This document shows positions 215-62,121 of a stretch of DNA of 64,000 nucleotides, piece by piece. The DNA comes from Bacteroidales bacterium UBA4772 (GTDB taxonomy: Bacteria; Bacteroidota; Bacteroidia; Bacteroidales; VadinHA17): assembly GCA_002403305.1 (NCBI GenBank), contig DHHM01000016.1, forward strand, positions 58,482-122,481, written 5' to 3'. The stretch's first letter is position 1. Each line of letters opens with the position of its first letter. The translations under genes and the position numbers were made by a program. The notes beneath the pieces are model-generated. The model searched no databases. It was not told the origin of the DNA and worked only from the letters and a program-made list of their open reading frames with translations.

Positions 215-309
215 ATGAAACTTGCATGAGCAGTAACTCACAAAAGGAGTTTATTATTTAATTTCGTGCAAGTTCCTTTAAGCCGATGAAATAAACATGT
301 TATTATCAA
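215..309 (+). repeat. palindromic cassette copy A1 (95 nt unit)
   Basis: ATGAAACTTGCATGAGCAGTAACTCACA...TTCGTGCAAGTTCC...GCCGATGAAATAAAC. The left arm is the inverted complement of the right arm. First of a tandem pair. Confidence 0.9.
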
Positions 310-404
310 ATGAAACTTGCATGAGCAGTAACTCACACCGGAAAATGATTATATTTCTTCATGTAAGTTCCATTAGACCAATAAAATAATAATCAATTAG
401 CCTA
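310..404 (+). repeat. palindromic cassette copy A2 (95 nt unit), ends exactly at the ATG of the 405 CDS
   Basis: ATGAAACTTGCATGAGCAGTAACTCACACCGGAAAATGATTATATTTCTTCATGTAAGTTCCATTAGACCAATAAAATAATAATCAATTAGCCTA followed by ATG at 405. Confidence 0.9.
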
Positions 405-635
405 ATGAAAAGAAAGATTGCATATATCGCCTCCCTCATTCTGACGGCAAGCCTCCTGACATCATGTGAGATGCTGGGCGACAACTGCCAGATATGTCAC
501 CAGGTAACATATGACAACGGTAATCCGGTCAACTACGGTGATGAAACAGAACTTTGCGGAGACGAACTCTTCGCCGTGAAGGCCAATCCGGAAACTACTG
601 TCGGCTCTGTCACCATCAGATGGGTATGCTATTAA
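405..635 (+). CDS. small Cys-rich lipoprotein, unknown function
   Basis: 76-aa ORF. N-terminus MKRKIAYIASLILTASLLTSC has a signal peptide plus a lipobox-like LTSC. Four further Cys residues. Preceded by cassette A2. Confidence 0.6.
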   Translation: MKRKIAYIASLILTASLLTSCEMLGDNCQICHQVTYDNGNPVNYGDETELCGDELFAVKANPETTVGSVTIRWVCY

Positions 636-9299: not shown

Positions 9300-10817
<1,518 letters not shown>

Positions 10818-10874
10818 TTAAAATATATTCTACTTTACTCTTCTTACCTCGCTCGCCGCATTCACGGCACACTT

Positions 10875-11849
10875 TCATTTGACCCTGCCGATGAGGTTCA
10901 CCGCCAGCTGTTTAAGTTCATTCTTACGTTCGTCCTTCACTGACACCTGGTCCAGTGCCCTGAAAGCCCTGTTGAAATAGTCATAGGCCAGGTTCTCTGC
11001 CTCCAGCCTTATCTCCAGCTCATCATAGATAGTCCTGACGGCTGTTATCTTCTCTTCCGGGTTGCCGTCGTTGGTTTCGATCTGCTTCCTCAGCTCACGC
11101 AGCTTCTCTCCTCCTGCCGTCTCCAGTGCCCGCACCAGCAGATATGTCTTTTTGTTTGAGACGATATCATTGCCGGTTTTCTTTCCGAACTTTTTTGTAT
11201 CACCATAAGTGTCAAGAACGTCATCCTGTATCTGGAAAGCCATTCCCAGGGAGCGGCCGAACTCATAAAGGAGATCCTGGTCTTTTTCGGAAGCCTCGCC
11301 GATGACGGCTCCAATCTTCAGCGATGCTGCCACCAGCACAGCTGTTTTGAGCTCTATCATGCGCAGGTACTCCTCAGTGGTGACGACTCCCTTTTTCTCA
11401 TAGTCCATGTCAAGCTGCTGACCGACGCACACCTCAATCGCGGTGCGGTTAAAGATCTTCAGTGTCAGTGGCAGCACCTTTTCGGGTGCATGGCCTATGC
11501 ACTCGGTAGCCAGGAAAGCCATCACGTCCCCCGAGAGTATAGCCTGGTCAGCACCCCATCTTGCATGAACGGTGGGTGAGCCTCTTCTGATATCGGCTCT
11601 GTCCATGATGTCGTCATGTACAAGGGTAAAGTTATGAAACACCTCAATACCTGCTGCCGGCATCACGGCATTATCAATCTTGTCGCTGAAGAGATTGCAT
11701 GCCATGAGACACATCACCGGCCTGAGCCTCTTGCCACCTATTGACAGAATATACCGCACCGGCACGAAGAGCCTGTCGGCTTCCGATGAAGACCCCAGGC
11801 CGGTAATAGCCTTGTCTGTCAGTTCTCTCAGGTAGTCGCCGGTGAACAT
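10875..11849 (-). CDS. polyprenyl diphosphate synthase (trans-isoprenyl diphosphate synthase family)
   Basis: Both aspartate-rich motifs are present (LVHDDIMD and QIQDDVLD). 324 aa. Confidence 0.9.
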   Translation of the reverse strand: MFTGDYLRELTDKAITGLGSSSEADRLFVPVRYILSIGGKRLRPVMCLMACNLFSDKIDNAVMPAAGIEVFHNFTLVHDDIMDRADIRRGSPTVHARWGADQAILSGDVMAFLATECIGHAPEKVLPLTLKIFNRTAIEVCVGQQLDMDYEKKGVVTTEEYLRMIELKTAVLVAASLKIGAVIGEASEKDQDLLYEFGRSLGMAFQIQDDVLDTYGDTKKFGKKTGNDIVSNKKTYLLVRALETAGGEKLRELRKQIETNDGNPEEKITAVRTIYDELEIRLEAENLAYDYFNRAFRALDQVSVKDERKNELKQLAVNLIGRVK

Positions 11850-11860
11850 TTATCTCTCCT

Positions 11861-12745
11861 TTATCCGTTAAGTGCTTCCGCGCCACTTACCACCTCAAGC
11901 AACTGGTTTGTGATGGCAGCCTGGCGAGCCTTGTTATACTGCAGAGTGAGATCCCTGATAAGCTCCGTGGCGTTGTCAGTGGCCTGGTGCATGGCAGTCA
12001 TTCGTGCACCGTGCTCTGCGGCAAATGAGTCGAGCAGTGCCTTGTAAAACTGTATCCGCAGACTCTTGGGTATCAGCTCCCTCACAATGCTTACCTGGTC
12101 AGGCTCGTAGATATAGTCAGCTGATTCATTATCAGTGTCATTCTCCGTAACGGTAACCGGCAGGAACTGCTCCGCGGTAAGCTTCTGGACAGCTGCATTC
12201 TTAAACTGGTTATAGACTATCTCTATAGTATCATACTCTTTTGAAAGGTACAGCGTGATAAGTCTGTCTGCCAGGATGGCTGTATTTTCATAGGTGAGGT
12301 CTGACCACAGATCACTGTGCTCTTCAAGTATGTTGCACTTCAGTCTTTTGAGCAGGTCATTTCCCTTTTTGCCAACGGTGACGAACCAGAGGTCTCCTCT
12401 CTTCGCCTGTTCCGGGTATTTCTCAGCCATGATGCGTCTTGCCTCCCTGACGACATTGGCATTGAAGGCGCCGCAGAGTCCCTTGTTGGAGGTGACTATT
12501 ACTATCAGCACCTTGCCGGAGGTCTGCTTCCTGGCGGCATAGATGTTCTCGGTTTCGGCATCACGCAGGGCATTATTCAGTCCTGTCAGTATCTCCTCCA
12601 GCTTGGCAGCGAATGGCCTCAGCTGTACGATCGCATCCTGTGACCTGCGCAGCTTTGCAGCCGCAACCATCTTCATCGCTGAAGTGATCTGGCGTGTCGA
12701 TTTGACCGAGCTGAGTCTGACCCTTATTGCCTTGAGGTTAGCCAT
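11861..12745 (-). CDS. atpG: F1 ATP synthase gamma subunit
   Basis: 294 aa. MANLKAIRVRLSSVKSTRQITSAMKMVAAAKLRR and a C-terminal ITNQLLEVVSGAEAL. Confidence 0.95.
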   Translation of the reverse strand: MANLKAIRVRLSSVKSTRQITSAMKMVAAAKLRRSQDAIVQLRPFAAKLEEILTGLNNALRDAETENIYAARKQTSGKVLIVIVTSNKGLCGAFNANVVREARRIMAEKYPEQAKRGDLWFVTVGKKGNDLLKRLKCNILEEHSDLWSDLTYENTAILADRLITLYLSKEYDTIEIVYNQFKNAAVQKLTAEQFLPVTVTENDTDNESADYIYEPDQVSIVRELIPKSLRIQFYKALLDSFAAEHGARMTAMHQATDNATELIRDLTLQYNKARQAAITNQLLEVVSGAEALNG

Positions 12746-12765
12746 AGTTTACTTACCGTTTCAGA

Positions 12766-14352
12766 TTAACGCTGGGAGTATCGCAGTGCAACATCCGCAG
12801 CAGCTTTTTCAAGCACCCCCGTTACCTCGTCATTGATAATGCCTTTGGCGATGGTCTCAAGCACATCGCTGTGATGGTCGCGCATGAAGGTCAGAAAATC
12901 GTTTTCGAAGAGCTTTACCTTATGCACCGGGATATCCTTAAGCAGCCCCTTTGTGCCGCAATAGATGATCGCTACCTGTTCTTCCACCTTCATGGGAGAG
13001 AACTGGTTCTGCTTCAGTATCTCGACGTTCCTGGCACCTTTGTTAAGTACTGCCAGGGTGGCAGGGTCAAGGTCGGAGCCGAACTTGGAAAAAGCCTCCA
13101 GCTCGCGGTACTGTGCCTGGTCGACCTTCAGGGTGCCTGCGATTTTCTTCATCGATTTTATCTGGGCGTTGCCCCCTACCCTGGATACGGAGATACCCAC
13201 GTTGATGGCGGGCCTGATACCGGCATTGAAGAGGCTGGTCTCAAGAAATATCTGTCCGTCAGTGATGGAGATCACGTTGGTGGGGATGTATGCTGACACG
13301 TCTCCTGCCTGTGTCTCGATGATGGGCAGTGCTGTCAGTGACCCTCCCCCCTTGATCATATCTTTTATTGAATCGGGAACGTCATTCATGCGCTGTGCCA
13401 CCTCGTCAGATTCGATGATCTTGGCTGCTCTCTCGAGCAGCCTCGAGTGGAGATAGAAGACGTCGCCCGGGTATGCTTCGCGGCCGGGGGGCCGGCGGAG
13501 CAGGAGTGACACCTCGCGGTATGATACTGCCTGTTTCGACAGGTCGTCATAGATGATCAGGGCATCGCGGCCGGTGTCACGGTAGAACTCGCCGATGGCG
13601 GCGCCGGCAAAAGGAGCATAGAACTGTGCGGCGGCGGAGTCGGCGGCGGTGGCACACACGATGACCGTGTAGTCCATGGCGCCGTAGTTCTCAAGGGTGG
13701 CTGCTATGTTTGCCACCGTCGATCCCTTCTGACCTATAGCAACATAGATGCAATAGACAGGTTTCCCCTTCTCATATTCGCTCTTCTGATTGATGATTGT
13801 GTCAATGGCAATGGCTGTCTTGCCGGTCTGACGGTCGCCGATGATCAGTTCGCGCTGTCCCCTGCCGATGGGTACCATGGCATCGATAGCCTTGAGACCC
13901 GTCTGCACCGGCTGTTTCACCGGCTGCCTGAAGATAACACCCGGAGCCTTCCTCTCGAAAGGCATCTCGTAAAGCTCTCCGGTGATCGGGCCCCGGCCGT
14001 CGATGGGGGTGCCGGTGGTGGTGATAACCCTGCCAAGCAGTCCTTCACCGACCATTATTGATGATATCCTTCCTGTGCGGCGTGCTATGTCACCCTCCTT
14101 TATCTTCTCGGAGGCTCCCAGGATCACAGCACCGACGTTGTCTTCCTCGAGGTTGAGGACAATGGCCTTGATGCCCGACTCCACGAATTCGATAAGCTCA
14201 TTGGAGCCGACATTCCTGAGACCGTAGATGCGTGCGATGCCGTCACCGACCTGAAGTACGGTCCCTACTTCCTCAACATCAATGGCCGTCTTTACTCCTT
14301 CAAGCTGCTGCCTCAGGATCTGTGATACCTCTGAAGGTTTGATATTAGTCAT
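12766..14352 (-). CDS. atpA: F1 ATP synthase alpha subunit
   Basis: 528 aa with Walker [10 protein letters not shown] and conserved alpha-subunit sequence. Confidence 0.97.
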
Positions 14353-14370
14353 CTCTCTTTATCTTATAAT

Positions 14371-14922
14371 CTATTCTTCGGCATACCCTGCCAGTGAAAA
14401 TTCTTTTCTGAATCTGTTAAGCCTGTTTCTCACGCTCGCGTCGATATATGCATCATCAACTCTGAGAATGAAGCCTCCGATAACCGATTCGTCAATCTTT
14501 TCAATGAATTCGATCTCTCCCGTCTCCTTCTCCTCCATCAGCAGGGCCATCTCCTTCCTGAGACTCTCGCCGACAGGCACCGCCGTGGTAAGGGTGACTT
14601 CGCGTATGCCCCTGTGGCGGCGAGTCAGGTCAATGACGTTCCTTGCTGCTGCCCCCAGGAATTCTCCCCGGCCCTGTTCAAACATCAGTCTGATGAACCT
14701 GACCGTAAATGCATCAGCATCATCACCTGTAAGGGCAATCATTATCTCCTTCCTCTTCTGCAGCGGTATGACCGGATTGCCGATCATCTCCTTCACCTCC
14801 TCCATGGAAGATACCCGGCTTATGACCTTCATGTCGCGGTACACCCTTTCCAGCGCATTCTTTTCGAGTGCGAGGCTGAAGAGGGCGGTGGCATACCTTA
14901 CTGCTATCTTGCTTGCGTTCAT
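14371..14922 (-). CDS. atpH: F1 ATP synthase delta (OSCP) subunit
   Basis: 183 aa. RYATALFSLA start typical of the delta subunit. Sits between atpF and atpA. Confidence 0.85.
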   Translation of the reverse strand: MNASKIAVRYATALFSLALEKNALERVYRDMKVISRVSSMEEVKEMIGNPVIPLQKRKEIMIALTGDDADAFTVRFIRLMFEQGRGEFLGAAARNVIDLTRRHRGIREVTLTTAVPVGESLRKEMALLMEEKETGEIEFIEKIDESVIGGFILRVDDAYIDASVRNRLNRFRKEFSLAGYAEE

Positions 14923-14927
14923 GAGAT

Positions 14928-15440
14928 TCAGTTACGGTTCGCCTCTATCTCCTTAAGATATCTCTCTATAAGCTTCTGCTGCTCGGCGTCGCTCTTCAGT
15001 GTCTCTCCGACAACCTTTGAGGCCACCTCTATTGCCAGACGGGCTACCTCGCGCTTTACCTCGGCGATAGCGCTCACCCTTTCACGTTCGATGAGCTCCC
15101 TTGCTCTACGGACCATGGCATCTGACTCCGACTGGCTCTTCTCCTTCGCCTCGGACATCATGCGTTCGTATGCCACACGTGCATCACGGAGTATCTTGTC
15201 TCTCTCCTCACGGGCCTTGCGAAGGATGATCTCATTGTCAGCCTGCAGGACCTTCATCTCTTCGCGCGCCTTTTCGGCAGCATCAAGGGCATTATGTATC
15301 ATGTCCTCGCGCGAACTGACAGCCTTCATGATCGGATCCCAGGCAAACTTCCATAGAAGGACCAGCAGGAGGAGAAAGATCAGTGTTGTCCAGAAGACAG
15401 TCCCGATGGCGGGACTGGCAAGACTGCTTTGTAGTAACAT
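14928..15440 (-). CDS. atpF: F0 ATP synthase subunit b
   Basis: One N-terminal TM helix, then a long charged helix. Start placed at MLLQSSLASP (15440) rather than the ORF maximum at 15482. Confidence 0.85.
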   Translation of the reverse strand: MLLQSSLASPAIGTVFWTTLIFLLLLVLLWKFAWDPIMKAVSSREDMIHNALDAAEKAREEMKVLQADNEIILRKAREERDKILRDARVAYERMMSEAKEKSQSESDAMVRRARELIERERVSAIAEVKREVARLAIEVASKVVGETLKSDAEQQKLIERYLKEIEANRN

Positions 15441-15506
15441 ATCGTATCTTTTTCGTTGATTCGGTTGATAGCCTGCAACCAACCGTTGCAGGCTATGTTT
15501 CCTTGC

Positions 15507-16839
<1,333 letters not shown>

Positions 16840-18044: not shown

Positions 18045-19052
18045 TTATTCCGGGGGGGCTGAATCATACGCCCATTTCAACCATATGCTGCCCCATGTAA
18101 AACCGCCTCCGAAGGCGGCCAGCACCAGGTTGTCACCCTTTTTGAGTCTCTTCTCGAACTCCCAGAGAACAAGCGGTATTGTGGCTGCGGTGGTGTTGCC
18201 GTACTTCTGAATGTTGATCATCACCTTCTCCGGTGGCAGTCCCATCCTGCGACCTGTGGCATCGATGATGCGGAGGTTTGCCTGGTGTGGCACCAGCCAG
18301 GCGATGTCTTCCGGACGGAGGTTATTTCTGTTCATCACCTCAACAGCGATATCTGCCATGTTTGAGACGGCAAACTTAAAGACAGCCTGTCCCTCCTGGT
18401 ATATATAGTGCTCTCGTCCGCCCACCGTTTCATGCGATGCCGGCCTTAGTGACCCTCCGGCCTTCATGTGAAGGTATTTTCTTCCTGACCCGTCGCTTTT
18501 GAAGACATGGTCCATAATACCGTATTCCTCAAGTGTGGGCTCAAGCAGGACTGCACCTCCGGCGTCGCCGAAGAGAGTGCAGGTGGTACGGTCAGTGTAG
18601 TCAGTTATGGATGACATCTTGTCGGCACCGACCACTACTACCTTTTTGTATCTTCCCGATTCAACATATGATGCTGCGGTCTGCAGCGCAAAGAGAAACC
18701 CTGAGCAGGCAGCCCCGACATCAAAGCTGAAGGCATTCTTAATTCCTGTCTTGTCACAGATGATGTTCGCAGTGGCGGGGAACATCATGTCAGGCGTAAT
18801 GGTTGCGCAGACGAGCAGGTCCACCTCATCGGGAGAGGTGCCGGTCTTCTCAAGGAGGCCTGTGACGGCCGGTGCGCCCAGGTCGGAGGTGCCGAGGCCT
18901 TCACCTTTAAGTATCCTTCTCTCTTTGATGCCTACGCGTTGCATGATCCACTCGTCGCTGGTCTCGACCATCGTCGACAGCTCATGGTTTGTAAGCCGGT
19001 ATTCCGGCACCCAGGCATTTATTCCGGTAACTGCAGCTCTGATCCTTGTCAT
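18045..19052 (-). CDS. fabH: beta-ketoacyl-ACP synthase III
   Basis: [25 protein letters not shown]..., active-site region GAACSGF, C-terminal GGGFTWGS. The ATG overlaps the plsX stop (ATGA). Confidence 0.93.
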
Positions 19053-19993
19053 GCTCCAAGCGCCTCCTTGATTTTTCCGGCAAGGTCGGCATGAACAACA
19101 TCGCATGTCTGAAGAAGCATGTTCATTATAGCCTTGCGGTTTGAGATACCGTGACCTACCACGACATTCTCATTGATGCCAAGCACGGGTGTGCCCCCGA
19201 CAACCTCAAAGTTCATCCTGTCAAAAAAGTCATCGCTGATCCCTTTTGATTTCAGCACCACATAGAATTTCTCAGCCATCTTCAAGACCACGTTACCCAC
19301 GAATCCGTCGCACACGATAACGTCAGTCATCTCATCGGTGAAGAGGTGGTGTCCTTCTATGTTGCCTTTAAAACTGATCTCGCTGCTTTCGCGCAGCATC
19401 TCGAAGGCACTCTTCACCGCTGCCGAGCCCTTTGTCTCCTCGATGCCGATATTCAGCAGCCCGACGGATGGATTGTCAATGCCAAGCACATACTTTGCAT
19501 ATACCGTTCCCAGCAGCCCGTACTGAAGAAGGACATCCGGCTTGCTGTCAGGGTTTATCCCCACGTCCAGCATTACCGATGAGCTGCCGTTGATATTTGG
19601 GATGAGGGCGGCAAGGGCAGGCCTGAAGACACCGGGGATGACATTGACGGTATAACTTGCCCCAACCAGCATTGCACCGGTGTTTCCTGCACTGGCAAAA
19701 CCGTCGATGAGCCCGCTCTTAAGCATGTTGTATCCTACTGCGATGGATGAGTCTCTCTTCTGCGAGAATGCCTTTGCAGGATGGTCTGACATCTCGATAA
19801 CCTCCGTTGTGGGAACAATATCGAACATGTCAGGGTCAGCATGCATCAATGCAAGCTTCTCCCTGATCTTCTGACCGTCACCCAGAAGTACGACACGGTC
19901 ACCTGACGGCAGTTGTCCCAGGGCATCCACAGCCCCTTCAAGAATAGCATCGGGAGCAAAGTCGCCCCCCATGACATCAAGACCTATTTTCAT
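19049..19993 (-). CDS. plsX: phosphate acyltransferase PlsX
   Basis: [14 protein letters not shown] start and overall PlsX sequence. Canonical rpmF-plsX-fabH order. Confidence 0.93.
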
Positions 19994-23112: not shown

Positions 23113-23865
23113 ATGCAAAAAATAAGAGCACTTATCATTGAAGATGAAGCACCGGCACGCGAGCTGATAAAGTTTATGCTTAAAGATCATCCTGAGATAG
23201 AGATTGCGGGAGAGTGCGGCGACGGGTTCTGCGGGGCCAGGGAGATGAAGGAGAAACATCCTGACCTTATCTTCCTCGACATACAGATGCCCAAGCTGAC
23301 AGGCTTCGAGCTGCTGGAGGTTATCGATGAAAAGCCCGAGGTGATCTTCACAACTGCCTTCGACCAGTATGCCATCAGGGCCTTCGAACTCAATGCAGTC
23401 GATTACCTGCTCAAGCCATTCTCGAAGGAGCGCTTTGATGATGCGCTGGAAAAGGCCGTCAGCCGCCTAAACAAGCAGGAGAGGGAGACGGAGAAGATAG
23501 AGAAGCTCGTGACCGCCGTCTCTGAGAGCGAGGGTCAACTGACAAGGATAGTATTCAGGAAGGGTGCCGGGATAAAGATCATCCCGCTCAACAATGTCTC
23601 CCACCTTGCTGCGGAGGATGATTACGTGATGATATATCATACCGAAGGCAAGGCGCTGAAGCCCAAGACCATGAAGTATTACGAGGAGCATCTGCCACCG
23701 TCACTGTTCCTGAGAGTGCACCGTTCGTTCATGGTCAATGTGGAGTACATAACACGACTCGAACCCTACAGCAAGGATAACTACGTGGCCATACTCAAAT
23801 CGGGAGAAAAGATCCCGGTGAGCCGTGCCGGGTATAAGATGCTGAGGGAAAAACTTAACTTTTAA
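23113..23865 (+). CDS. LytTR-family DNA-binding response regulator
   Basis: REC domain (ALIIEDE...FLDIQMP...KP) plus a C-terminal LytTR-like domain (FLRVHRSFMVNVEYI). Confidence 0.92.
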   Translation: MQKIRALIIEDEAPARELIKFMLKDHPEIEIAGECGDGFCGAREMKEKHPDLIFLDIQMPKLTGFELLEVIDEKPEVIFTTAFDQYAIRAFELNAVDYLLKPFSKERFDDALEKAVSRLNKQERETEKIEKLVTAVSESEGQLTRIVFRKGAGIKIIPLNNVSHLAAEDDYVMIYHTEGKALKPKTMKYYEEHLPPSLFLRVHRSFMVNVEYITRLEPYSKDNYVAILKSGEKIPVSRAGYKMLREKLNF

Positions 23866-25739: not shown

Positions 25740-25887
25740 ACTTACGGAGTTACTCCGTAAAAGTATGAAAAATTCATCATATAATAATTTACTCCATTTG
25801 TATGAAAGCCTGTCCCGGTTTATGGGAGAACCTCCATGTATCAGATTATTATTTACTTGTATTTGTGTGTGATAACACATGGAGGTT

Positions 25888-27117
25888 TCAGAAACTATAC
25901 CTGATCCTTAAGAAGCCAAGATTAAGCTTCGTCTCTGCGGAGGCCAGACGCATGTCAAAATGTTGCCAGAGTAATGAGAAATCGACATTCTCAGCCAGTG
26001 AAACATCCACTGAAGGGCCGGCGTACCATCCATCCATGTCAGGGTACCACATGGCTGAAAGTGATATACTGAGAAGGGGCATCGGCGCCCATGTCACCTG
26101 TCCTACGGCGCTGAATTCCGAGAAGGCAAGGTCTCTGGCCGTCAGGCCCCCCTTATAAAGCACGGTGAAACTGTCGAGTGATAGCGGGCGGTTTGAGTAC
26201 ATCAGCTGCACAATGGCGGTCAGCCTGTCAGAGAAGACCCTGTCAACGCCGGCGGTGGCAATCACGGTGCTCCCTTCATGCTCTGATCCGTCAAAAGGGG
26301 AAAAGAGTGTTGCCTCACCCCTGACGGAAAAGGGCCCGACGGCTCCTGACCATCCGGTGCCGGCGGTGAATAACTCCTCATCGGTCTCTCCGGCAAGAAA
26401 CTGGAGGTCGGTGTTCAGCAGGCTGAAGCGGAAGAGAGCTGCGGCGGTGAACCGGCCCTGGCTGTTGATCTTGACGGCAGCCTCGGCAGCTGACGATGGG
26501 CCGGTGGAATATACCAGCCTGACGGCGTCACTGCCCGGACGCTCAACATAGTCGAAATCAAAAAATGAGTAGGTGTTGAAGATGTCATTGGGGTTCCATA
26601 CCAGCGACTGGCTCCAGTTGATGCGCTGGCGGCCGGCGGTGATCTGCAGCCTGCCCAGCGTGAAGTCAGCGTATGCCCTGTCGATCATCGAATTCAGGAC
26701 ATAGGAGTTGCCGTCGGATATGTTCCATGAAAGGTCAATCCATCCGTCGTCGGTTGCCAGTCCTGACACATAACCGGGATCGAGCGCAATCATGTCGCCG
26801 GTGACAAACCTGTTCCTGATCTCTAAAGCAAAAGTGAACCTACTTCCTGCCCAGGCTTTGAAGTTTAGCCTGTTATGAAGCATGCTGCTGTTGATCCAGG
26901 TTTCTGCAGGCTTTTCGAACATGGCAGTATGGAGCCATGAGGCATACCCCCCGGCAGTGAGGCTGACCATCTTCTCTTTCTCTTCCGGAGGATCCGTGAT
27001 GACGCCGTTCATCTTCAGCGTATCACTCTTAGCAACGCCGGGGTCGATGCCGGTAAGGGCGACAGACTGCAGCATTGCGGCAAACATCATAACTGCCGGA
27101 AGGAGTGTTCGCATCAT
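25888..27117 (-). CDS. predicted outer-membrane beta-barrel protein, last gene of the ABC/LolA_like cluster
   Basis: Signal peptide MMRTLLPAVMMFAAMLQSVA. Alternating beta-strand pattern. C-terminal ...LGFLRIRYSF with a terminal aromatic residue. 4-nt overlap with the ATPase gene. Confidence 0.6.
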   Translation of the reverse strand: MMRTLLPAVMMFAAMLQSVALTGIDPGVAKSDTLKMNGVITDPPEEKEKMVSLTAGGYASWLHTAMFEKPAETWINSSMLHNRLNFKAWAGSRFTFALEIRNRFVTGDMIALDPGYVSGLATDDGWIDLSWNISDGNSYVLNSMIDRAYADFTLGRLQITAGRQRINWSQSLVWNPNDIFNTYSFFDFDYVERPGSDAVRLVYSTGPSSAAEAAVKINSQGRFTAAALFRFSLLNTDLQFLAGETDEELFTAGTGWSGAVGPFSVRGEATLFSPFDGSEHEGSTVIATAGVDRVFSDRLTAIVQLMYSNRPLSLDSFTVLYKGGLTARDLAFSEFSAVGQVTWAPMPLLSISLSAMWYPDMDGWYAGPSVDVSLAENVDFSLLWQHFDMRLASAETKLNLGFLRIRYSF

Positions 27118-30683: not shown

Positions 30684-30776
30684 TCGATTATCTTATTATT
30701 TCATTGGTCGAAAGAAACTTACATGTAGTAAAAACAATCATGTCCAATTGTGAGTTTCTGTCCATGTAAGTTTCAT
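30684..30776 (-). repeat. palindromic cassette copy B (93 nt), intercistronic
   Basis: Minus-strand reading: ATGAAACTTACATGGACAGAAACTCACAATTGGACATGATTGTTTTTACTACATGTAAGTTTCTTTCGACCAATGAAATAATAAGATAATCGA, then ATG at 30683. Confidence 0.88.
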
Positions 30777-31569: not shown

Positions 31570-31665
31570 TAGATTATTTGTTTATTATTATATTGGACTA
31601 ATGGAACTTGCATGAAGTTTACAGTCATTTCCCCGGGAGGAGTTGCTGCTCATACATGGTTTCAT
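31570..31665 (-). repeat. palindromic cassette copy C (96 nt, left arm degenerate)
   Basis: Minus-strand reading: ATGAAACCATGTATGAGCAGCAACTCCTCCCGGGGAAATGACTGTAAACTTCATGCAAGTTCCATTAGTCCAATATAATAATAAACAAATAATCTA, then ATG at 31569. Its head ATG overlaps the stop of the upstream ORF (ATGA). Confidence 0.8.
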
Positions 31666-37540: not shown

Positions 37541-39127
37541 ATGTCAACCTTAAAGCTGATGCTGGGGATGATCCCCTCAACCTCCAAAATCGAACAGGAA
37601 GAGAAGGCTCTGATTGCCGAGTATGAAAAGATGATCGCCTTTGCCGGCTCGGAAGCACTGGCACGATACAACGTATTGCACGAGAGTGTCAACTCGGCCG
37701 GCTTCATGCAAAAAAAGAAGGAGATAGAATCGCTTGCCTACAAGGGCTCGGAGGAGCACGCCAGGGAGACTGAATTCCTGGGCCTTCAGAAGGCAAAAGA
37801 CATTGTATCATATTTCAGGACAGAGGGCAGCGCCCTGCTGAAGAATTTCCAGTCGCTTGACGCATCAGCCAGGATAAAGGAGATCGAAGACCTTCAGCTC
37901 TTCGTGCAGTCGCCTGAATTCAGGCAAAAGGAGAAGATGAAGCCGGTGACATTCAGGGATACGGAGGAGTATGGCAAGTGGCTGGAATTCAAAAAACTGA
38001 AGAGAGACAAGGAGGTTAAGAAGAATCTTAATCCCGAAAAGGTGAAAAGGTTCTCCGAGTTGCAGTCCCTGGTGACCTCATCGGCCTTCCTGCTGAAGAA
38101 AAACATGAAGCCCGTCACATTCAGGGATACTCCCGAATATCAGAAACTGCAGGAACTCAAAACCAAAAAGAGTGCTTCGGATATTGTTTCCTACTACAAG
38201 TTTCGCAATTCAAAGGAATATCACAACTACACCGGTGTAAAGGATTCCGCCCGCCTGAAGAGGTACCATGAACTCCAGGAGTATCTCAAGACTAAGGAAT
38301 TTTCGGAGAGGAAAGAGTACCTGCTCGACAAGCGTCGGTTTGAAAAGACGGAGATGTTCAAGGAGCTGAAGGAGTACGAGACACTGAAGAATTCACCTGA
38401 CATCAAATGGTACTTTGGCGTTAAGGATTCGAGCAAGTTTGATATCATCAAAAACCGCAAACTCACTTTCAGCGATGAGTTCGACGGTACTGCCCCTGAC
38501 AGCAGCAAGTGGATAAACAAATACTATTGGGGTGATAAGCTGCTACACGACAGCTACAGTATTGCCACCGATCTTCACTGTTACACACCTTCGGACAATT
38601 TCGAGATGCGTCACAGTGTACTTCGCATCATCACCAAACCTCAGAAGATAAACGGCAAGGTATGGGATCCGTCAAAGGGTTTCTACACCAAGGATTTCAA
38701 CTTTACCTCCGGCATTATCAACACCGGCGCTTCTTTCAGGCAGAAGTACGGCACCTTCTCCGCCAAGATCAAGCTTGCCGACCACAATGTCCGCAACGCC
38801 TTCTGGCTGATCGGCGACCGCATAACACCTCATCTGGACGTCTGCAGATCGGGCGGCGGAAAGGTCTGGTTTGATCTCTTCACCTCGCCGGGCAGCCATT
38901 ATAAGAAAAGCATCGGATCACGATATCTCTCTGATTTCTACATATACACCCTCGAGTGGACGCCCCGGAGCCTCATCTGGAAGATCAACGGTGTGGAGGT
39001 GATGCGCCAGACAACAGGCGTGCCCCAGGAGGAGATGTACATCAACCTCGCAGGAGGCGTTGACAAGCCCATAGGAGGGATCTCATCGATGGAGATCGAC
39101 TGGGTCAGGGTTTACCAGGAGAAATAA
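37541..39127 (+). CDS. GH16/ConA-like lectin-fold protein with an N-terminal array of charged ~55-aa repeats; canonical catalytic motif absent
   Basis: The C-terminus (FSDEFDG...SGIINT...YGTFSAKIKL...NAFWLIG...MEIDWVRVYQ) follows the GH16 fold landmarks. The ExDxxE position reads PHLDVCR. N-terminal repeats include KMKPVTFRDTEEY and NMKPVTFRDTPEY. No signal peptide is seen. Confidence 0.7.
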   Translation: MSTLKLMLGMIPSTSKIEQEEKALIAEYEKMIAFAGSEALARYNVLHESVNSAGFMQKKKEIESLAYKGSEEHARETEFLGLQKAKDIVSYFRTEGSALLKNFQSLDASARIKEIEDLQLFVQSPEFRQKEKMKPVTFRDTEEYGKWLEFKKLKRDKEVKKNLNPEKVKRFSELQSLVTSSAFLLKKNMKPVTFRDTPEYQKLQELKTKKSASDIVSYYKFRNSKEYHNYTGVKDSARLKRYHELQEYLKTKEFSERKEYLLDKRRFEKTEMFKELKEYETLKNSPDIKWYFGVKDSSKFDIIKNRKLTFSDEFDGTAPDSSKWINKYYWGDKLLHDSYSIATDLHCYTPSDNFEMRHSVLRIITKPQKINGKVWDPSKGFYTKDFNFTSGIINTGASFRQKYGTFSAKIKLADHNVRNAFWLIGDRITPHLDVCRSGGGKVWFDLFTSPGSHYKKSIGSRYLSDFYIYTLEWTPRSLIWKINGVEVMRQTTGVPQEEMYINLAGGVDKPIGGISSMEIDWVRVYQEK

Positions 39128-39437: not shown

Positions 39438-39923
39438 ATGACCGTAAAAGAGTACAATAACGCCGTCAGGGAGTTCGGTGACCATGTTTACCGGTTCATC
39501 TTCCGCAGTATCAAGGACAGCCACAGGGCTGACGATATCGTACAGGACAGCTACGAAAAGCTGTGGCGGAACGTTACTGAAATAGAGTACTGCGCCGTGA
39601 AATCATGGCTCTTTTCAACGGCATACAACAGGATGATTGATGTTATCAGGAAAGACTCCAGGCTGGTAGGCGTGGAGTATTACGATGACAGTTCACTATA
39701 TGCGGAGGAGAACGGCAGCGACCTTAACGAGGTGCTGCACAGGGCCCTGGAGACCCTTCCGCCGGCCCAGCGATCGGTAATTCTCCTGCGTGATTACGAA
39801 GGGTACAGCTATAAGGAGATAGCTGACATCACCGCACTCTCTGAGGCACAAGTCAAGACCTACATCTTCAGGGGACGTGTGGCTCTCAGGAACTATCTGG
39901 TAAAGACATCGGTATGGCAATGA
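39438..39923 (+). CDS. ECF (sigma-70 family group 4) RNA polymerase sigma factor
   Basis: 161 aa. Region 2 (DIVQDSYEKLW...W Lfstaynrmid) and region 4 (LPPAQRSVILLRDYEGYSYKEIADITALSEAQVKTYIFRGR). Confidence 0.9.
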   Translation: MTVKEYNNAVREFGDHVYRFIFRSIKDSHRADDIVQDSYEKLWRNVTEIEYCAVKSWLFSTAYNRMIDVIRKDSRLVGVEYYDDSSLYAEENGSDLNEVLHRALETLPPAQRSVILLRDYEGYSYKEIADITALSEAQVKTYIFRGRVALRNYLVKTSVWQ

Positions 39924-41071
39924 CAGAAAATACAGACTTCCCACACCTTACACCCCGGGACGACAGGCTGCAGGGCGAAGGGAAGCTGTTCCGCCGGCCG
40001 GAGGAGCTTACTGATGAGCAGTTTGATCTCCTCGCTGCCGCGTGGGCCGATGATGCTCTCGGCGGCGACAGTCTCGCAGAGACAGAGGCGGCGCTGTCCT
40101 CCAGTCCTGAAAGAAGGATGCGCGCTGAAAGCTTCCGGCAGATCAGGCTCTCTCCTCTGATTGACAGGTGGGAGGGCAGGAACCGAATACTGAAAGCTGA
40201 TCCGGGTACCTACGCCATCAGGCGCATACTGATTGTCACACTGACTGTCGCCGCGGCACTGGGAGCCCTGGTAATCCTGGGCCCGTTAAAAACGGAACCC
40301 GACAACAAATCAGCGGGTCCGGCTGTTGCTGAGGCACAAAAAATTGGTGAGGCCATAACAATAGCTGAAGCACAGACAATGGGTGAGGCCCTCATCTCCG
40401 AAGCATCACCGGTGATCGTGGCCCTGCCGGCAGAGAGTGTGACTCCTGCGACACAAAATATTAATCAAACTGCCGGTGCGGCTAACCCATCCATTGACAA
40501 AACAAGCAGTACCCGGTTGGCCGGTGTCATCTCCGGATCTGCTGCTGACATAACGAGTAAGCCGCGGCCAGTCGGGGTGATCCCGGAATCACTTAAGCCG
40601 GAAAGAATAGTGCCGCAACAGAATGATATTACTGCCTCAGTTACCAACTCATTCATCCACGCTAATAGTGAGCCGCGAACCACCGCGGAAATTGCTGAAT
40701 ACCGTGATCTGGCAGAGTCTATTGCCTTGATGCATGATTTTTCGGGTGCAGTGCCCCTGCTGGCTGCCGGACCGGAAGCATCCCGCCTGGCTCCGGTGGA
40801 GCTTAAGGATATAACCCCTCTTCCTGCTCTGGAGAGAGAGGAAAACTGGCTGGTGAGAGGTCTCTCACTGCTGGCGGAGGCCATAACAAAAGAACCGAAA
40901 AGTGTTGACGGATACTTTATTGCCGATGCCTGCATCAGAGGAGTAAACAGAGTGCTGGGCTGGGAAATGGAGCTCGAACAGGAGAAAAATAATGAAGGGG
41001 AGCAACTTGCAACGAATTTCAGCTCTTCACTGCTAACCTTCTCTGCCCCGGCGAAAAAAACTCATCCCTGA
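39914..41071 (+). CDS. putative anti-sigma factor (single-pass membrane protein)
   Basis: Overlaps the sigma gene by 10 nt. N-terminal cytoplasmic segment, one TM helix (ILIVTLTVAAALGALVILG), and a low-complexity periplasmic part with an AEAQxxGEA repeat. Confidence 0.55.
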   Translation: MAMTENTDFPHLTPRDDRLQGEGKLFRRPEELTDEQFDLLAAAWADDALGGDSLAETEAALSSSPERRMRAESFRQIRLSPLIDRWEGRNRILKADPGTYAIRRILIVTLTVAAALGALVILGPLKTEPDNKSAGPAVAEAQKIGEAITIAEAQTMGEALISEASPVIVALPAESVTPATQNINQTAGAANPSIDKTSSTRLAGVISGSAADITSKPRPVGVIPESLKPERIVPQQNDITASVTNSFIHANSEPRTTAEIAEYRDLAESIALMHDFSGAVPLLAAGPEASRLAPVELKDITPLPALEREENWLVRGLSLLAEAITKEPKSVDGYFIADACIRGVNRVLGWEMELEQEKNNEGEQLATNFSSSLLTFSAPAKKTHP

Positions 41072-41113
41072 GTGTAACTTTCCGGGTGCATTGATCGTCC
41101 CACCAATAAACAA

Positions 41114-41183
41114 CAGAAACTTGCATGAGCAGAAACTCACAGCAGTAAATGACTACTACATTCATGCAGGTTCCATTCGACCA
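41114..41183 (+). repeat. palindromic cassette copy D1 (70 nt short form, lacks A/T tail)
   Basis: cAGAAACTTGCATGAGCAGAAACTCACAGCAGTAAATGACTACTACATTCATGCAGGTTCCATTCGACCA. A tail-like remnant CCACCAATAAACAACA lies just upstream. Confidence 0.85.
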
Positions 41184-41277
41184 GTGAAACTTGCATGAGC
41201 AGGAACTCGCAACAGGTTTTGATTGTCAAATTCATGTAAGTTCCATTCGACCAATAAAATAATAATTATATAACCGA
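41184..41277 (+). repeat. palindromic cassette copy D2 (94 nt)
   Basis: GTGAAACTTGCATGAGCAGGAACTCGCAACAGGTTTTGATTGTCAAATTCATGTAAGTTCCATTCGACCAATAAAATAATAATTATATAACCGA, then ATGAAATAA. A duplicated 25-nt tail follows, then the gene ATG at 41303. Confidence 0.9.
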
Positions 41278-41302
41278 ATGAAATAATAATTAAATAAACG
41301 CC

Positions 41303-42403
41303 ATGAAGAGAACATTGTTAACAGTCACTGTGATAATTGCGCTGATCCTTCCGGTGCAGGCACAGGAGAAGGAAGAAAAACTGAAGGAGTTGGAGAAACT
41401 TGAGGCGGAGGCAGGTACGGTCACTCCCCCTGACACCCTGAAAGCGAAAACGGACATCAGTGCAGCAGAGGCAGACACCCTGAGGCAGGAGGCAGAAGCG
41501 CTGCCGGCAGAGGAGGGAAACCTCCCGGCAGAGGAGGCGGAGGAGATAATGATTGAAGAGCCGGAATCTCCGGCTCTTCCCGGCGATGGTGAAGACACTG
41601 CCCGCATTACAATAGGTGAAATAGTCACCGTGGAGGACACGGGTGACGAGACAGTGATAAGGATCGGGAAGAAGGCTGTCAGGATTCTGACAGACGGTGA
41701 CAACGCGGAGATCCGGATGGAAGATGAGGAAGAAGATGCAGATGAAGAGTTTTCCACTCCCGGCAGACGCTTGTTTGAGGGCCACCTCGGAGGCATTGAG
41801 ATCGGCTTCAACAGCTATTCCACCGGACAGTGGGGCCGTAATCCGGAAATGGCCGATGACTATCTCGACCTGAACACGGCAAAATCTTCCAATTTCAATA
41901 TCATCTCACCGCCAGTGAGCCTGGGACTGTCGCGCCACATCGGTATCGTGTCGTCCCTGGGTGTCAGCTTCAACAACTACCGCTTTGACAACAACAACTC
42001 GGTCATCCCGGGAGACGGCGGGATCGTGGAACCATATTATCCTGCTGATGGAATAAATTATGAAAAGAGCAAGCTTGCTACCGTCTACGGCGTGCTGCCC
42101 GTAATCCTGGAGGCACAGATACCCGTGACATACAGTAGCACCCTGAACATCGGGGCGGGCATCATCGGGGCAGTGAAGCTGGGATCACATACCAAGGTGG
42201 TCTACTACAGCGACGGAAAGCAGAAGGATAAGAACCATGACGACTTCAGCCTCAATGTGCTGAGATACGGAGTCACAGCACGGGCAGGGTACGAGATGGT
42301 ACAGGTGTACGGCACCTGCTACCTGTCACAGATGTTCGAAAAGGGCAAAGGACCGGAACTCTATCCCTTTGAGGTCGGCATAGCCCTGACCATCAACGAC
42401 TGA
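41303..42403 (+). CDS. outer-membrane beta-barrel protein with an acidic low-complexity N-terminal region
   Basis: Signal peptide MKRTLLTVTVIIALILPVQAQ. A Glu/Ala-rich ~130-aa segment, then an alternating beta-strand C-terminal half. Lies downstream of the sigma/anti-sigma pair. Confidence 0.6.
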   Translation: MKRTLLTVTVIIALILPVQAQEKEEKLKELEKLEAEAGTVTPPDTLKAKTDISAAEADTLRQEAEALPAEEGNLPAEEAEEIMIEEPESPALPGDGEDTARITIGEIVTVEDTGDETVIRIGKKAVRILTDGDNAEIRMEDEEEDADEEFSTPGRRLFEGHLGGIEIGFNSYSTGQWGRNPEMADDYLDLNTAKSSNFNIISPPVSLGLSRHIGIVSSLGVSFNNYRFDNNNSVIPGDGGIVEPYYPADGINYEKSKLATVYGVLPVILEAQIPVTYSSTLNIGAGIIGAVKLGSHTKVVYYSDGKQKDKNHDDFSLNVLRYGVTARAGYEMVQVYGTCYLSQMFEKGKGPELYPFEVGIALTIND

Positions 42404-57277: not shown

Positions 57278-58650
57278 CGGAGAAAGAGTTTAAAAGATCA
57301 GTGCTGACGGTCACTGCCTTCGCCTCATTTCTGACCCCTTTTATGGGTTCGGCGGTCAACCTGGCACTCCCCTCCATCGGTGAGGAGTTCAGTCTCAATG
57401 CCGTCACCCTCAACTGGATTGTCAGCAGCTACATGCTTACCACCTCCATGCTGCTCCTTCCTGCAGGAAGGGCCGGGGATATACTGGGACGCAGGAAGAT
57501 CTTCACCGCGGGGATGATTGTTTTCACTTTCTCGATGATACTTCTGACCTTCACCCCCGGCATACGATGGCTTATCGCTGTAAGGATACTGCAGGGGGTG
57601 GGAGGAGCCATGATGTTCGGCACAAACATGGCGATACTGACCTCGGTCTTCCCTCCCGGAGAGAGAGGCAGGGCCATGGGAATAAATGTCACGGCAGTAT
57701 ATGCCGGCCTTGCCTCAGGACCCTTTCTGGGAGGGTTGCTGACGCGCTATCTGGGCTGGAGAAGCATCTTCGCCTTTCTAATACCCATGGGAATTATCAG
57801 CCTGATACTTATCCGTACCCGCATGAAGAAAGAATGGGCTGATGCCAGGGGCGAGAGTTTCGACTGGCAGGGATCGGTGGTCTACGGTCTGGCGATGGCG
57901 GCACTGATGTACGGCTTCTCCAAACTGCCCTCGCCGGCGGGGTGGATCATAACAGGCGCCGGCCTGTTGCTCATGCCGCTCTTCATCATGAGGGAGAAGA
58001 GAGCAGTTCACCCGCTGTTCGACATAACACTCATCTCCAGAAACAGGGTCTTTGCCTTTTCAAGCCTCGCCGCACTTATCCATTATGCCGCCACCAGTGC
58101 CGTAGGCTTCTTTCTGAGCCTGTTCCTGCAGTATATCAAGGATATGGGACCCCGTGACGCGGGGTTCGTGCTCATGTCATTGCCTGTCACAATGACACTG
58201 ATATCACCTCTTGCCGGCAAGCTGTCAGACCATCATAACCCGGGAGTGCTCGCCTCCATAGGCATGGCCATATCCACGGCCGGACTGATATTACTCTGCT
58301 TTCTTACCGAACAGACTTCGATTCTGTTCATTGTTGTGGTACTGCTGATTATGGGAGCCGGATTCTCGCTCTTCTCATCACCAAATTCAAATGCCATAAT
58401 GAGCTCCGTTGAGAAAAGACAGCTGGGAAATGCCTCAGGCATGCTTGGCACCATGAGAAACGTGGGCCAGACATTCAGTATGGCAATAGCACTGATGCTG
58501 CTGGCACTCTACATGGGTCAGGAAAAGATCGGCCCGGCAAACTACCCTCAGCTGATGAATTCGATGAAGAGCGCGTTTATCGTCTTCTCCGTCCTCTGCT
58601 TAGCGGGTGTTTTCGCCTCCCTGGCGCGAAATAAAAATCTTCGGCGGTAG
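57274..58650 (+). CDS. MFS transporter, 14-TMS DHA2 (EmrB/QacA)-like
   Basis: 458 aa with ~14 hydrophobic segments and the GRAGDILGRRKIF motif A. 4-nt overlap with dtd. Confidence 0.9.
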   Translation: MTEKEFKRSVLTVTAFASFLTPFMGSAVNLALPSIGEEFSLNAVTLNWIVSSYMLTTSMLLLPAGRAGDILGRRKIFTAGMIVFTFSMILLTFTPGIRWLIAVRILQGVGGAMMFGTNMAILTSVFPPGERGRAMGINVTAVYAGLASGPFLGGLLTRYLGWRSIFAFLIPMGIISLILIRTRMKKEWADARGESFDWQGSVVYGLAMAALMYGFSKLPSPAGWIITGAGLLLMPLFIMREKRAVHPLFDITLISRNRVFAFSSLAALIHYAATSAVGFFLSLFLQYIKDMGPRDAGFVLMSLPVTMTLISPLAGKLSDHHNPGVLASIGMAISTAGLILLCFLTEQTSILFIVVVLLIMGAGFSLFSSPNSNAIMSSVEKRQLGNASGMLGTMRNVGQTFSMAIALMLLALYMGQEKIGPANYPQLMNSMKSAFIVFSVLCLAGVFASLARNKNLRR

Positions 58651-58680
58651 CCTTAACTCTACTTTTTGTTTGCTTTTCAT

Positions 58681-58774
58681 TCGGTTATTTAATTATTATT
58701 TTATTGGTCAAATGGAACTTACATGAATTTGACAATCAATACCTGTTGCGAGTTCCTGCTCATGCAAGTTTCAT
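58681..58774 (-). repeat. palindromic cassette copy E2 (94 nt)
   Basis: Minus-strand reading: ATGAAACTTGCATGAGCAGGAACTCGCAACAGGTATTGATTGTCAAATTCATGTAAGTTCCATTTGACCAATAAAATAATAATTAAATAACCGA, then ATG at 58680..58678. Near-identical to D2. Confidence 0.9.
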
Positions 58775-58845
58775 TGGTCGAATGGAACTTACATGGAGTA
58801 AAACAATCATAACCTTTTGCGAGTTGCTGCTCATGTAAGTTTCAT
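58775..58845 (-). repeat. palindromic cassette copy E1 (71 nt short form)
   Basis: Minus-strand reading: ATGAAACTTACATGAGCAGCAACTCGCAAAAGGTTATGATTGTTTTACTCCATGTAAGTTCCATTCGACCA. Confidence 0.88.
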
Positions 58846-61919: not shown

Positions 61920-61933
61920 TGAAAACGGTCTTT

Positions 61934-62026
61934 ATGAACTTGCAAAAGCGGGGACTCTCAATAGGAGATGACGTTAAAACTTCATGCAAGTTCAATCCGG
62001 CCAGTAAAATAAATATTTATACACGA
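61934..62026 (+). repeat. palindromic cassette copy F1 (93 nt, degenerate)
   Basis: ATGAACTTGCAAAAGCGGGGACTCTCAATAGGAGATGACGTTAAAACTTCATGCAAGTTCAATCCGGCCAGTAAAATAAATATTTATACACGA. Confidence 0.8.
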
Positions 62027-62121
62027 ATGAAACTTACAAGAGCAGTAACTTACAATAGGTAATGATTATTTCTCTTCATGTAAGTTCCATTAGACCAATA
62101 AAATAACAATCAAGTAATCTA
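62027..62121 (+). repeat. palindromic cassette copy F2 (95 nt), ends at the ATG of the S41 protease gene
   Basis: ATGAAACTTACAAGAGCAGTAACTTACAATAGGTAATGATTATTTCTCTTCATGTAAGTTCCATTAGACCAATAAAATAACAATCAAGTAATCTA, then ATG at 62122. Confidence 0.9.

Follow-up and report, generated by a model that had tools for sequence, protein, structure and literature searches.

A 95-base repeat at ATG-AAA start codons of uncultured Bacteroidales is probably a small insertion-polymorphic cassette that brings a replacement leader and start codon

The window analysed here is a 64,000-nt stretch of contig DHHM01000016.1 from Bacteroidales bacterium UBA4772. Near its beginning, at a site we call locus A, two copies of a 95-base repeat stand in a row before a small gene. 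Each copy, or unit, consists of a hairpin part of 70-71 nt (H) and a conserved, A/T-rich tail of 24 nt (T) that runs into ATGAAA, and the whole is referred to as H-T. The first unit, A1, has its H at 215-285 (+), headed by ATGAAA at 215-220, and its 24-nt tail, ATGAAATAAACATGTTATTATCAA, at 286-309. The second, A2, has its H at 310-380 (+), headed by ATGAAA at 310-315, and a 24-nt A/U-rich tail at 381-404. The gene, taken from the list of open reading frames (ORFs), spans 405-635 (+) and encodes a putative lipoprotein of 76 aa; its first six bases (ATGAAA, 405-410) are the downstream copy of the repeat that flanks A2. The protein has five homologues with 78-93% identity, and no Pfam family was found for it. 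With the covariance model R1, built from the ten units of the window, A1 matches at 213-287 (85.3 bits) and A2 at 308-382 (91.6 bits). The H of A1 is an older, partly degenerate copy, and A1 is the sole unit at locus A in three related stretches (L216-L218).

The phasing of the repeat on start codons had been pointed out in an earlier note on this DNA, made from the sequence alone. The 95-nt step is exact: ATGAAAC stands at 215 and 310, followed by ATGAAAAG at 405, at the very coordinates given in that note. The conserved GACCA of A2 (376-380) lies 24 nt (381-404) before the ATG at 405; the same distance was recovered at the four further places where it had been claimed (units C, D2, E2 and F2), as was the distance of 21 nt at B (ATG 30683, - strand). 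The 23 nt claimed for internal junctions applies to F1/F2, the junction A1/A2 measuring 24 nt in the register of the covariance model. The note had also observed that the start codon of the gene takes the place of the next unit head, which is explained by the presence of ATGAAA on both sides of every insertion. We consider it probable that the repeat is a small, insertion-polymorphic, non-coding cassette that occupies ATG-AAA starts and brings with it a replacement leader and start codon.

This reading draws on differences between related populations. As the window is 85-95% identical to several metagenome-assembled genomes (MAGs), orthologous sites can be compared; loci with an L number are stretches fetched from other MAGs. 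There are seven presence/absence comparisons, comprising six empty sites and A2, and in every one ATGAAA borders H-T at both ends. Each of the six empty sites holds one ATG-NNN, which in five is the gene's own start codon. In all six filled/empty pairs, the upstream flank reaches the ATGAAA that is now the unit head, and the gene resumes past the ATGAAA at the tail end. Two of the empty sites lie in the window. At 23113-23118 (+), the start of a LytTR response-regulator gene reads TTTCGAG-ATGCAA-AAAATAAGA, and the corresponding loci are filled with H-T in L020 and with H-H-T in L072. At 25792-25797 (-), a non-start site in a 5' leader reads ATGGAG and is filled with H-T in L014. The remaining sites are filled in L050, L070 and L067 and empty, with ATGAAA, in L063, L065 and L056, respectively, and filled in L087 and empty, with ATGACA, in L030. 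At locus A it is A2 (310-404) that is polymorphic: L216 (C14-10), L217 and L218 carry an A1-type unit only before the 76-aa lipoprotein gene, and the window and L219 carry A1-T-A2-T. At arrays E and F, similarly, the window carries two units against a single one in L040.

The unit has a defined and conserved structure. H reads ATGAAA-CTTRCATGAG...CTCATGYAAGTTCCATTNGACCA in outline; the ATGAAA-CTTRCATGAG head is followed by a loop of ~35 nt, with conserved GCAGnAACTCACA and ATGAYT, and then by CTCATGYAAGTT-CCATTNGACCA. The tail has the consensus AT(A/G)AAATAATAATnAAATAAnC(G/T)A. A helix of 12 bp, P1, is 92.9% paired across 105 distinct copies. One of its pairs is GC in 52 copies, AU in 42, GU in 9 and unpaired in 2, and at another position most copies (77) have G-U. 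G-U, or G-T, is thus tolerated and A-C is not, and therefore only the gene-sense strand folds well. At A2, P1 joins 314-325 with 358-369. Single-sequence folds lengthen the helix by pairing the head AUG with the CAU of UUCCAUU, for which 310-312 and 371-373 are available at A2.

A second helix, P2, ties the hairpin to the start codon. The N of CATTNGACCA is linked to the last bases of the tail, A occurring with CTA-ATG and C with CGA-ATG (Fisher p = 1.6e-11), and this linkage is base pairing. P2 comprises 6 bp between 5'-CAUUNG-3' and 5'-CN'AAUG-3', the latter made up of the last three tail bases and the start codon; at A2 these are CAUUAG at 371-376 and CUAAUG at 402-407 (tail end 402-404, AUG 405-407). 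The helix is 95.6% paired in the 68 copies with a 24-nt tail, slid registers are far worse, and its pairs covary (CG 33, AU 21, UA 2 and UG 2 at one; UA 60, UG 4 and CG 3 at another). Because the tail end and the AUG pair with CAUUNG beside the hairpin, P2 probably sets the fixed length of the tail. On its own P2 is weak (-3.0 kcal/mol); P1 with P2 (-13.5 kcal/mol) and P1 with the AUG/CAU extension (-12.5 kcal/mol) are nearly equal. Partition-function folds of 67 copies leave the tail mostly open (0.64 unpaired) and its AUG mostly paired (0.22 unpaired). The tail, which the earlier note had described as A-rich, is A/U-rich, and the accompanying description of it as unstructured does not extend to its end, which takes part in P2. 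A pseudoknot between loop and tail (GAUUAUU with AAUAAUC) was considered and dropped, since cognate combinations (-3.48 kcal/mol) score no better than non-cognate ones (-3.55 kcal/mol).

Copies in other genomes were collected by scanning one genome per species with the 21-mer CATGYAAGTTCCATTNGACCA, a pattern that excludes the tail and the ATG. The scan gave at least 95 loci, and the survey counts reported here are among the matches listed. The 80 titled loci come from at least 18 uncultured Bacteroidales MAGs assigned to Bacteroidales, Rikenellaceae, Rikenella and a few Marinilabiliaceae. GCA_029210565.1 (C14-10) and WOFB09 are among the carriers of the element. R1 identified at least 106 further units on these loci. 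The histogram of GACCA-to-ATG distances that the earlier note had proposed was compiled from the listed loci; for the 105 units with an ATG at 15-30 nt, the distance is 24, 23 or 21 nt in 95 (68, 19 and 8 units, respectively), with the rest at 20 nt (3), 22 nt (3) and 18, 25, 28 and 29 nt (1 each). A subfamily with another loop and another tail, ATGAATTAACCAAATTATTTTCTA, occurs in L047, L052, L059, L069, L003, L004 and L035; it retains both the 24-nt spacing and the CAUUAG/CUAAUG pairing. A metagenome scan with GAGCAGNAACTCACA yielded 1 true unit among 120 loci, the pattern being too unspecific, and viral contigs gave no match.

The tail is not found apart from the hairpin. A weight-matrix scan detected no tail without an adjacent H, and T was rejected as a generic initiation region of these genomes. 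Two H copies stand without tails: L079:2666, which is truncated, and L001:4682, into which a further small sequence has been inserted. At L001:4600-4680 (-) a tail is interrupted by a G+C-rich insertion of ~60 nt with inverted repeats of its own (CCCCAGAGCAAGCTCTGG...CCGCTGCAAGCAGCGG), a second small repeat nested in the first.

Within the window, R1 finds exactly the ten units from which it was built, with 67-92 bits, and otherwise low-scoring reverse-strand echoes and one weak match; a 23-mer taken from the unit has 7 matches at up to 3 mismatches, compared with 0 expected. In addition to A1 and A2, there are single units at loci B and C and pairs at loci D, E and F. Locus B (30684-30776, -) consists of H at 30705-30776 and a 21-nt tail at 30684-30704 before the start of an FtsX-like permease gene at 30683, and has orthologous copies in L013 and L064. 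Locus C (31570-31665, -) consists of H at 31594-31665 and a 24-nt tail at 31570-31593 before the start of a LolA-like gene at 31569. Locus D (41114-41302, +) is nested, H1-[H2-T2]-T1, with D1 H at 41114-41183, D2 H at 41184-41253, T2 at 41254-41277 and the older T1 (ATGAAATAATAATTAAATAAACGCC) at 41278-41302, and precedes an outer-membrane beta-barrel gene that starts at 41303. Array E (58681-58845, -) has the form H-H-T, with E1 H at 58775-58845, E2 H at 58705-58774 and T at 58681-58704. Array F (61933-62121, +) has the form H-T-H-T, with F1 H at 61933-62003, a 23-nt tail at 62004-62026, F2 H at 62027-62097 and a 24-nt tail at 62098-62121, and is followed by the start of an S41 peptidase gene at 62122. 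The units at B, D and F sit within operons. Array D is placed between the second and third of a row of three genes at 39438-42403 (+), namely an extracytoplasmic function (ECF) sigma factor gene (39438-39923), an ORF of 385 aa and the beta-barrel gene; the 385-aa ORF has no Pfam match and may encode an anti-sigma factor.

The composition and layout of these arrays bear on how they arose. A2 groups with F2 and with the L008/L055/L066 type, not with its neighbour A1, and D2 and E2 are almost the same in sequence at a distance of 17 kb. Tails that themselves start with ATGAAA (GACCA-ATGAAATAA) are found in 49 of 116 units, or about half. Insertion into such a tail's own ATGAAA predicts precisely the nested H1-[H2-T2]-T1 layout, and H-H-T-T is found at D, at its orthologue L039, and in L086 and L056. 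The H-T-H-T arrays at A and F fit insertion at a head or terminal ATGAAA. Because neighbouring units are not sisters and the nested layout is unlike that produced by tandem duplication of H-T, the units would appear to have spread as copies rather than by local duplication.

The consequences for the adjacent gene can be read from the position of the ATGs. Among the 106 arrays listed, 74 have a long ORF that begins at the tail ATG itself; in 24 a co-oriented long ORF begins 27-200 nt further on, and none follows in 8. The second codon is AAA in 67 of the 76 genes opened by a tail ATG on the listed loci; ATGAAA stands at 7 of 53 starts in the window, on rough gene calls. Two units of the window do not lead directly into a gene. 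The ATG after D2 (41278) reads ATG-AAA-TAA, the true gene start being the ATG at 41303. The ATG after E2 (58680, -) opens an ORF of just 26 codons that faces the 3' end of an MFS-transporter gene on the + strand, and array E has no co-oriented long gene downstream. This short ORF (58602-58680, -, MKSKQKVELRLPPKIFISRQGGENTR) has a counterpart of 39 codons with a similar N-terminus in L040; the site is either that of a small protein or a plain intergenic insertion. The adjacent ATGs, which had been taken for gene starts, are therefore so in most arrays and not at D2 and E2, and for this reason the phased ATGAAA is a property of the element that does not always coincide with a gene start. The description of the repeat as a portable leader-plus-start-codon module, rather than a randomly inserted one, is borne out by the linkage of H and T, with T never alone, by the presence/absence differences and by the 74 of 106 arrays that open ORFs.

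Units displace the original reading frame and appear to replace its beginning. The ORF opened by the head is just four codons long in 79 of 97 units (ATG AAA CTT RCA TGA, encoding MKLA or MKLT), so the protein must start no earlier than the tail AUG. In 40 of 68 tails every frame contains a stop. As the tail is A/U-rich and in-frame stops in H leave the gene no other start, it is plausible that the tail acts as an initiation region independent of a Shine-Dalgarno sequence; no purine-rich Shine-Dalgarno motif was seen in the A/T-rich tails examined. Of 115 units, 1 contains TAnnTTTG, the canonical -7 box of Bacteroidota, which speaks against a canonical promoter within H-T. In 10 units the same box stands outside, 20-29 nt upstream of the head; one example is TAATTTTG at 189-196, in front of A1. 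From this distribution, the unit is most likely read from the host gene's own promoter.

Resident copies are under constraint. Orthologous H units are 88.5% identical (923/1043), compared with 69.7% (859/1232) at the 4-fold degenerate sites of adjacent genes, and substitutions in H are concentrated in the variable part of the loop. In the trio L002, L012 and L062, 73-74 of 75 aligned H positions are kept along with an identical private tail variant, at an identity of 61-69% in the 4-fold sites. A few orthologous pairs differ from each other as much as random copies do (e.g. L041/L090 and L042/L080), which suggests turnover. The constraint favours some host-level role, and the genes concerned have little in common: 73 distinct downstream proteins contain 85 Pfam families, none of them more than four times, with repeats accounted for by orthologues. 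They include peptidases, aldo-keto reductases, a tRNA synthetase, ROK kinases, epimerases, response regulators and LolA-like proteins. The absence of a functional theme among the 85 families argues against a functional regulon or a ligand-specific riboswitch.

We propose that gain and loss of the cassette happen en bloc at ATGAAA, usually a start codon with its Lys codon, and that ATGAAA is left on both sides. The upstream copy, the old start, would become the head of the unit, be drawn into the base of the hairpin and open the four-codon ORF. The downstream copy, at the end of the tail, would be fused in frame to the remainder of the gene and become the working start codon. As the cassette would itself supply leader and start codon, the gene would survive the insertion. 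Each insertion would recreate ATGAAA at the head, at the tail end and at about half of tail starts, giving new landing sites; the recreation of these sites would account for the 95-nt phased H-T-H-T arrays at A and F and for the nested H-H-T-T array at D. The unit would be transcribed within the mRNA from the host gene's promoter, and translation would begin at the tail AUG. Spread may be effected by a trans-acting enzyme that works on the sense strand in its folded form, as for IS200/IS605 or REP (repetitive extragenic palindromic) elements, with the CAT-containing box pairing with the target ATG and with the right-end ATG. The nearly equal pairings of CAU with the head AUG and with the gene AUG may modulate translation. 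These pairings could equally serve the mRNA, as a weak switch that hides either the old or the new AUG, and a regulatory role alongside mobility may be part of the best explanation.

A bolder version of this proposal, which we put forward tentatively and hold to be doubtful, is that H-T is a self-guided single-strand DNA element that homes to start codons. Its box, TTCCATTNG, would pair both with the target ATG(AAA) and with the element's own right-end CNAATG, and a trans-acting enzyme, HUH/Y1-like or other, would cut and join exactly at start codons. Once transcribed, the same box would toggle between the displaced and the working AUG. Were this so, a parasite would have installed a shared translational switch on about one tenth of genes.

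Several observations weigh against the cassette reading. No transposase, integrase or HUH protein is present among the ~50 ORFs of the window, and a crude regular expression for HUH...Y (Y1) proteins gave no match in the window and 99 loci; as no transposase was found, mobility is something that we infer from the differences between populations. Gain and precise loss look alike in filled/empty pairs. Among the six empty sites, three have ATGACA, ATGCAA or ATGGAG in place of ATGAAA, so that ATGAAA is a putative target and some of its bases may come from the element; the direct ATGAAA repeat of 6 bp would fit a duplication of that length as well as a target joined to an element end of the same sequence. 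At A2, the codons that follow the start are also affected: codons 3-5 (411-419) read AAAACAGCT in the one-unit form (L216:1507-1515) and AGAAAGATT in the two-unit form of the window, differing at 5 of 9 bases, L219 has AGAAAAATT, and the following 21 bases are identical in L216. The event may therefore extend 9 nt into the gene, for which recombination or gene conversion is a better fit than clean transposition. The comparison of L067 with L056 shows something of this kind too. To give the H-H-T arrays (E and L072), the nested model needs a further step. Part of the covariation could mirror a few subfamily lineages rather than many independent events, and it is likewise an inference that the unit is transcribed and the tail AUG used.

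Two of the rival explanations centre on a role in expression. The repeat might be a fixed, non-mobile, cis-regulatory 5' leader RNA, such as a riboswitch, thermosensor or protein-binding site, that selection maintains before the genes of a regulon and that owes its spacing to sequestration of the start codon. Both covarying helices form on the sense strand only and one of them includes the start codon, resident copies are more conserved than 4-fold sites, and the two pairing states (-12.5 vs -13.5 kcal/mol) differ little in energy. A leader of this kind would be hard to reconcile with seven presence/absence differences that have exact ATGAAA boundaries between genomes 75-94% identical, with tandem and nested arrays, with an array (E) that has no co-oriented gene downstream, or with downstream proteins as diverse as those above and no match in Rfam; we regard it as improbable. 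A portable promoter module, comparable to REP2 of Neisseria, is far less probable still. Under this explanation GAAACTT-N14-TCACA in the 5' arm, with its putative resemblance to an ECF sigma consensus, would be a -35/-10 pair. The GAAACTT motif is followed by a conserved TCACA, and an ECF sigma gene does lie in the window at 39438-39923. The GAAACTT bases, however, covary with the 3' arm as a helix that allows G-U and not A-C, which a promoter would not need; -7 boxes are situated upstream of heads and scarcely ever within units, and many units (as at B, D and F) are found inside operons.

The other rival is a local minisatellite of the type of mycobacterial interspersed repetitive units and variable-number tandem repeats (MIRU/VNTR), which would expand by slipped-strand or unequal recombination and whose phasing on ATG would be a by-product of tandem duplication in frame. 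Copy number does vary between orthologous loci, being two against one at E and F (L040) and at A, and MIRUs are themselves 40-100 bp operon units with ORFs that overlap the flanking genes (PMC3184786). Local expansion should nevertheless make neighbours closest relatives, and A2 instead resembles F2 and the L008/L055 type, as D2 resembles E2. Nor would it place the unit at more than 100 unrelated genes, produce H-H-T-T from tandem H-T duplication or put single units at sites that are empty in relatives, and we accord it hardly any credence. The insertion-polymorphic cassette thus continues to be the reading that we prefer.

The window is core chromosome, including an ATP synthase operon at ~9300-16806 and, at 18045-19993, plsX and fabH for the synthesis of fatty acids. 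Rfam 15 at gathering thresholds identified no RNA family (riboswitch, tRNA or small RNA) in the whole 64 kb; around locus A (150-470) there are chance-level matches to miRNAs and snoRNAs only (E >=0.16). H-T was accordingly rejected as a member of an Rfam family, having no gathering-level score, and the FopS small-RNA family, which is in Rfam, was set aside on account of its different architecture of a single-stranded 5' region and a terminator (PMC11697453). ARAGORN calls a 92-nt tRNA-Gln(CUG) at 38682-38773 (-). This is probably a false positive, as Rfam has no tRNA at the gathering threshold and the call falls within an ORF of 528 aa that has a GH16 domain. A hairpin of another kind, GAAACCTCCATGT...ACATGGAGGTTC, is located at 25822-25893 (-) in the gap that separates two co-oriented genes. 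It scores 22.6 bits with R1 and recurs at the orthologous position of L014; it could be remotely related to H, its stem having several compensatory changes, or else be an unrelated structure.

Small mobile repeats are known and one class of them, represented by REP2 and the Borrelia IR elements, carries a start codon, but how such modules spread and come to be placed had stayed open. In the present case the boundaries are directly readable: ATGAAA flanks the unit, the displaced frame is stopped and a new initiation region is brought along. The element illustrates how a selfish sequence can sit on a gene's most sensitive triplet and leave the gene alive. There are practical consequences for annotation, as gene callers will misplace starts or call spurious mini-ORFs at such loci, D2 and E2 being examples. 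The 24-nt tail with AUGAAA may be regarded as a natural, transferable initiation region, judging by its position before more than 70 unrelated genes. It provides a defined sequence for testing start-codon choice in Bacteroidota, a phylum without Shine-Dalgarno pairing. If the target is chosen by base pairing with the element's own box, H-T would constitute a reprogrammable insertion system directed to start codons.

No description of H-T was found in Rfam or in the literature searched for such elements. Its nearest precedent is provided by the dispersed repeats that carry start codons, Neisseria REP2 and Borrelia IR-A/IR-B. These are 120-180 bp long, lack terminal inverted repeats, contain two internal stem-loops and lie just upstream of unrelated genes, with their own ATG fused to the downstream ORF (Delihas 2011, PMC3184786). 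REP2 carries a promoter and a Shine-Dalgarno site, is present in ~26 copies and marks a set of co-regulated genes; the origin and spread of REP2 and the IR elements have been called open questions (PMC3184786). Compared by description, H-T likewise stands upstream of ORFs with its own ATG fused to them (74/106 arrays). It differs from REP2 in having no canonical promoter or Shine-Dalgarno site, in preceding functionally unrelated genes and in its far higher density of 10 units per 64 kb. It is further distinguished by its phased and nested arrays, by filled and empty sites bounded by ATGAAA and by a start codon that pairs with an internal box.

Other similarities are with elements mobilised as single strands. 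Like members of IS200/IS605, palindrome-associated transposable elements (PATEs) and the REPs or bacterial interspersed mosaic elements (BIMEs) linked to REP-associated tyrosine transposases (RAYTs), H-T is small, has a strand-specific subterminal hairpin and no terminal inverted repeats, and is bordered by a short specific flank. In IS608, a guide beside the hairpin recognises the sites of cleavage and the targets by base pairing (PMC3201880, PMC5934647), and in H-T the CAT of TTCCATTNG is complementary to the flanking ATG(AAA) as well as to CNAATG at the right end. H-T departs from IS200/IS605 in having one hairpin per unit rather than one at each end, the right end having just the 6-bp P2 in place of a subterminal palindrome. 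Its putative guide is moreover 3' of the hairpin and not 5', and the putative right-end site is 24-30 nt away. REPs are usually located 3' of genes, whereas H-T sits on start codons. The stem-loops of Borrelia IS605, which occur at the 3' ends of genes, were judged not comparable (PMC2775950).

Three further families share some features with H-T. In the account reportedly given by Ogata et al. in 2000, Rickettsia palindromic elements (RPEs) are inserted in frame and translated within the protein, whereas H-T, which replaces the start codon, is kept out of it; both are palindromic repeats of a selfish kind that persist in gene space by sparing the host gene. RPEs are listed together with the other small repeats in PMC3184786. 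MITEs, the miniature inverted-repeat transposable elements such as Correia of Neisseria, ERIC and RUP, are similarly non-autonomous, high in copy number, ~100 bp long and transcribed with their neighbours, and have filled and empty sites with a short direct repeat on both sides (PMC3184786). Their inverted repeats are terminal, whereas the 3' arm of H-T ends 31 nt before the right end, its 5' arm begins at base 5, and its termini, CTTGCATGAG and AAATAATCGA, are not inverted repeats of each other. MITE targets, in addition, are short (TA) and untied to start codons, and MITEs supply no start codon. MIRUs resemble H-T as tandem units of 40-100 bp with variable copy number, located in operons, with filled and empty sites and small ORFs phased with the stop and start codons of flanking genes (PMC3184786). 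MIRU arrays, however, grow locally and their ORFs read through, whereas H-T arrays are composed of non-sister units, each of which stops the upstream frame.

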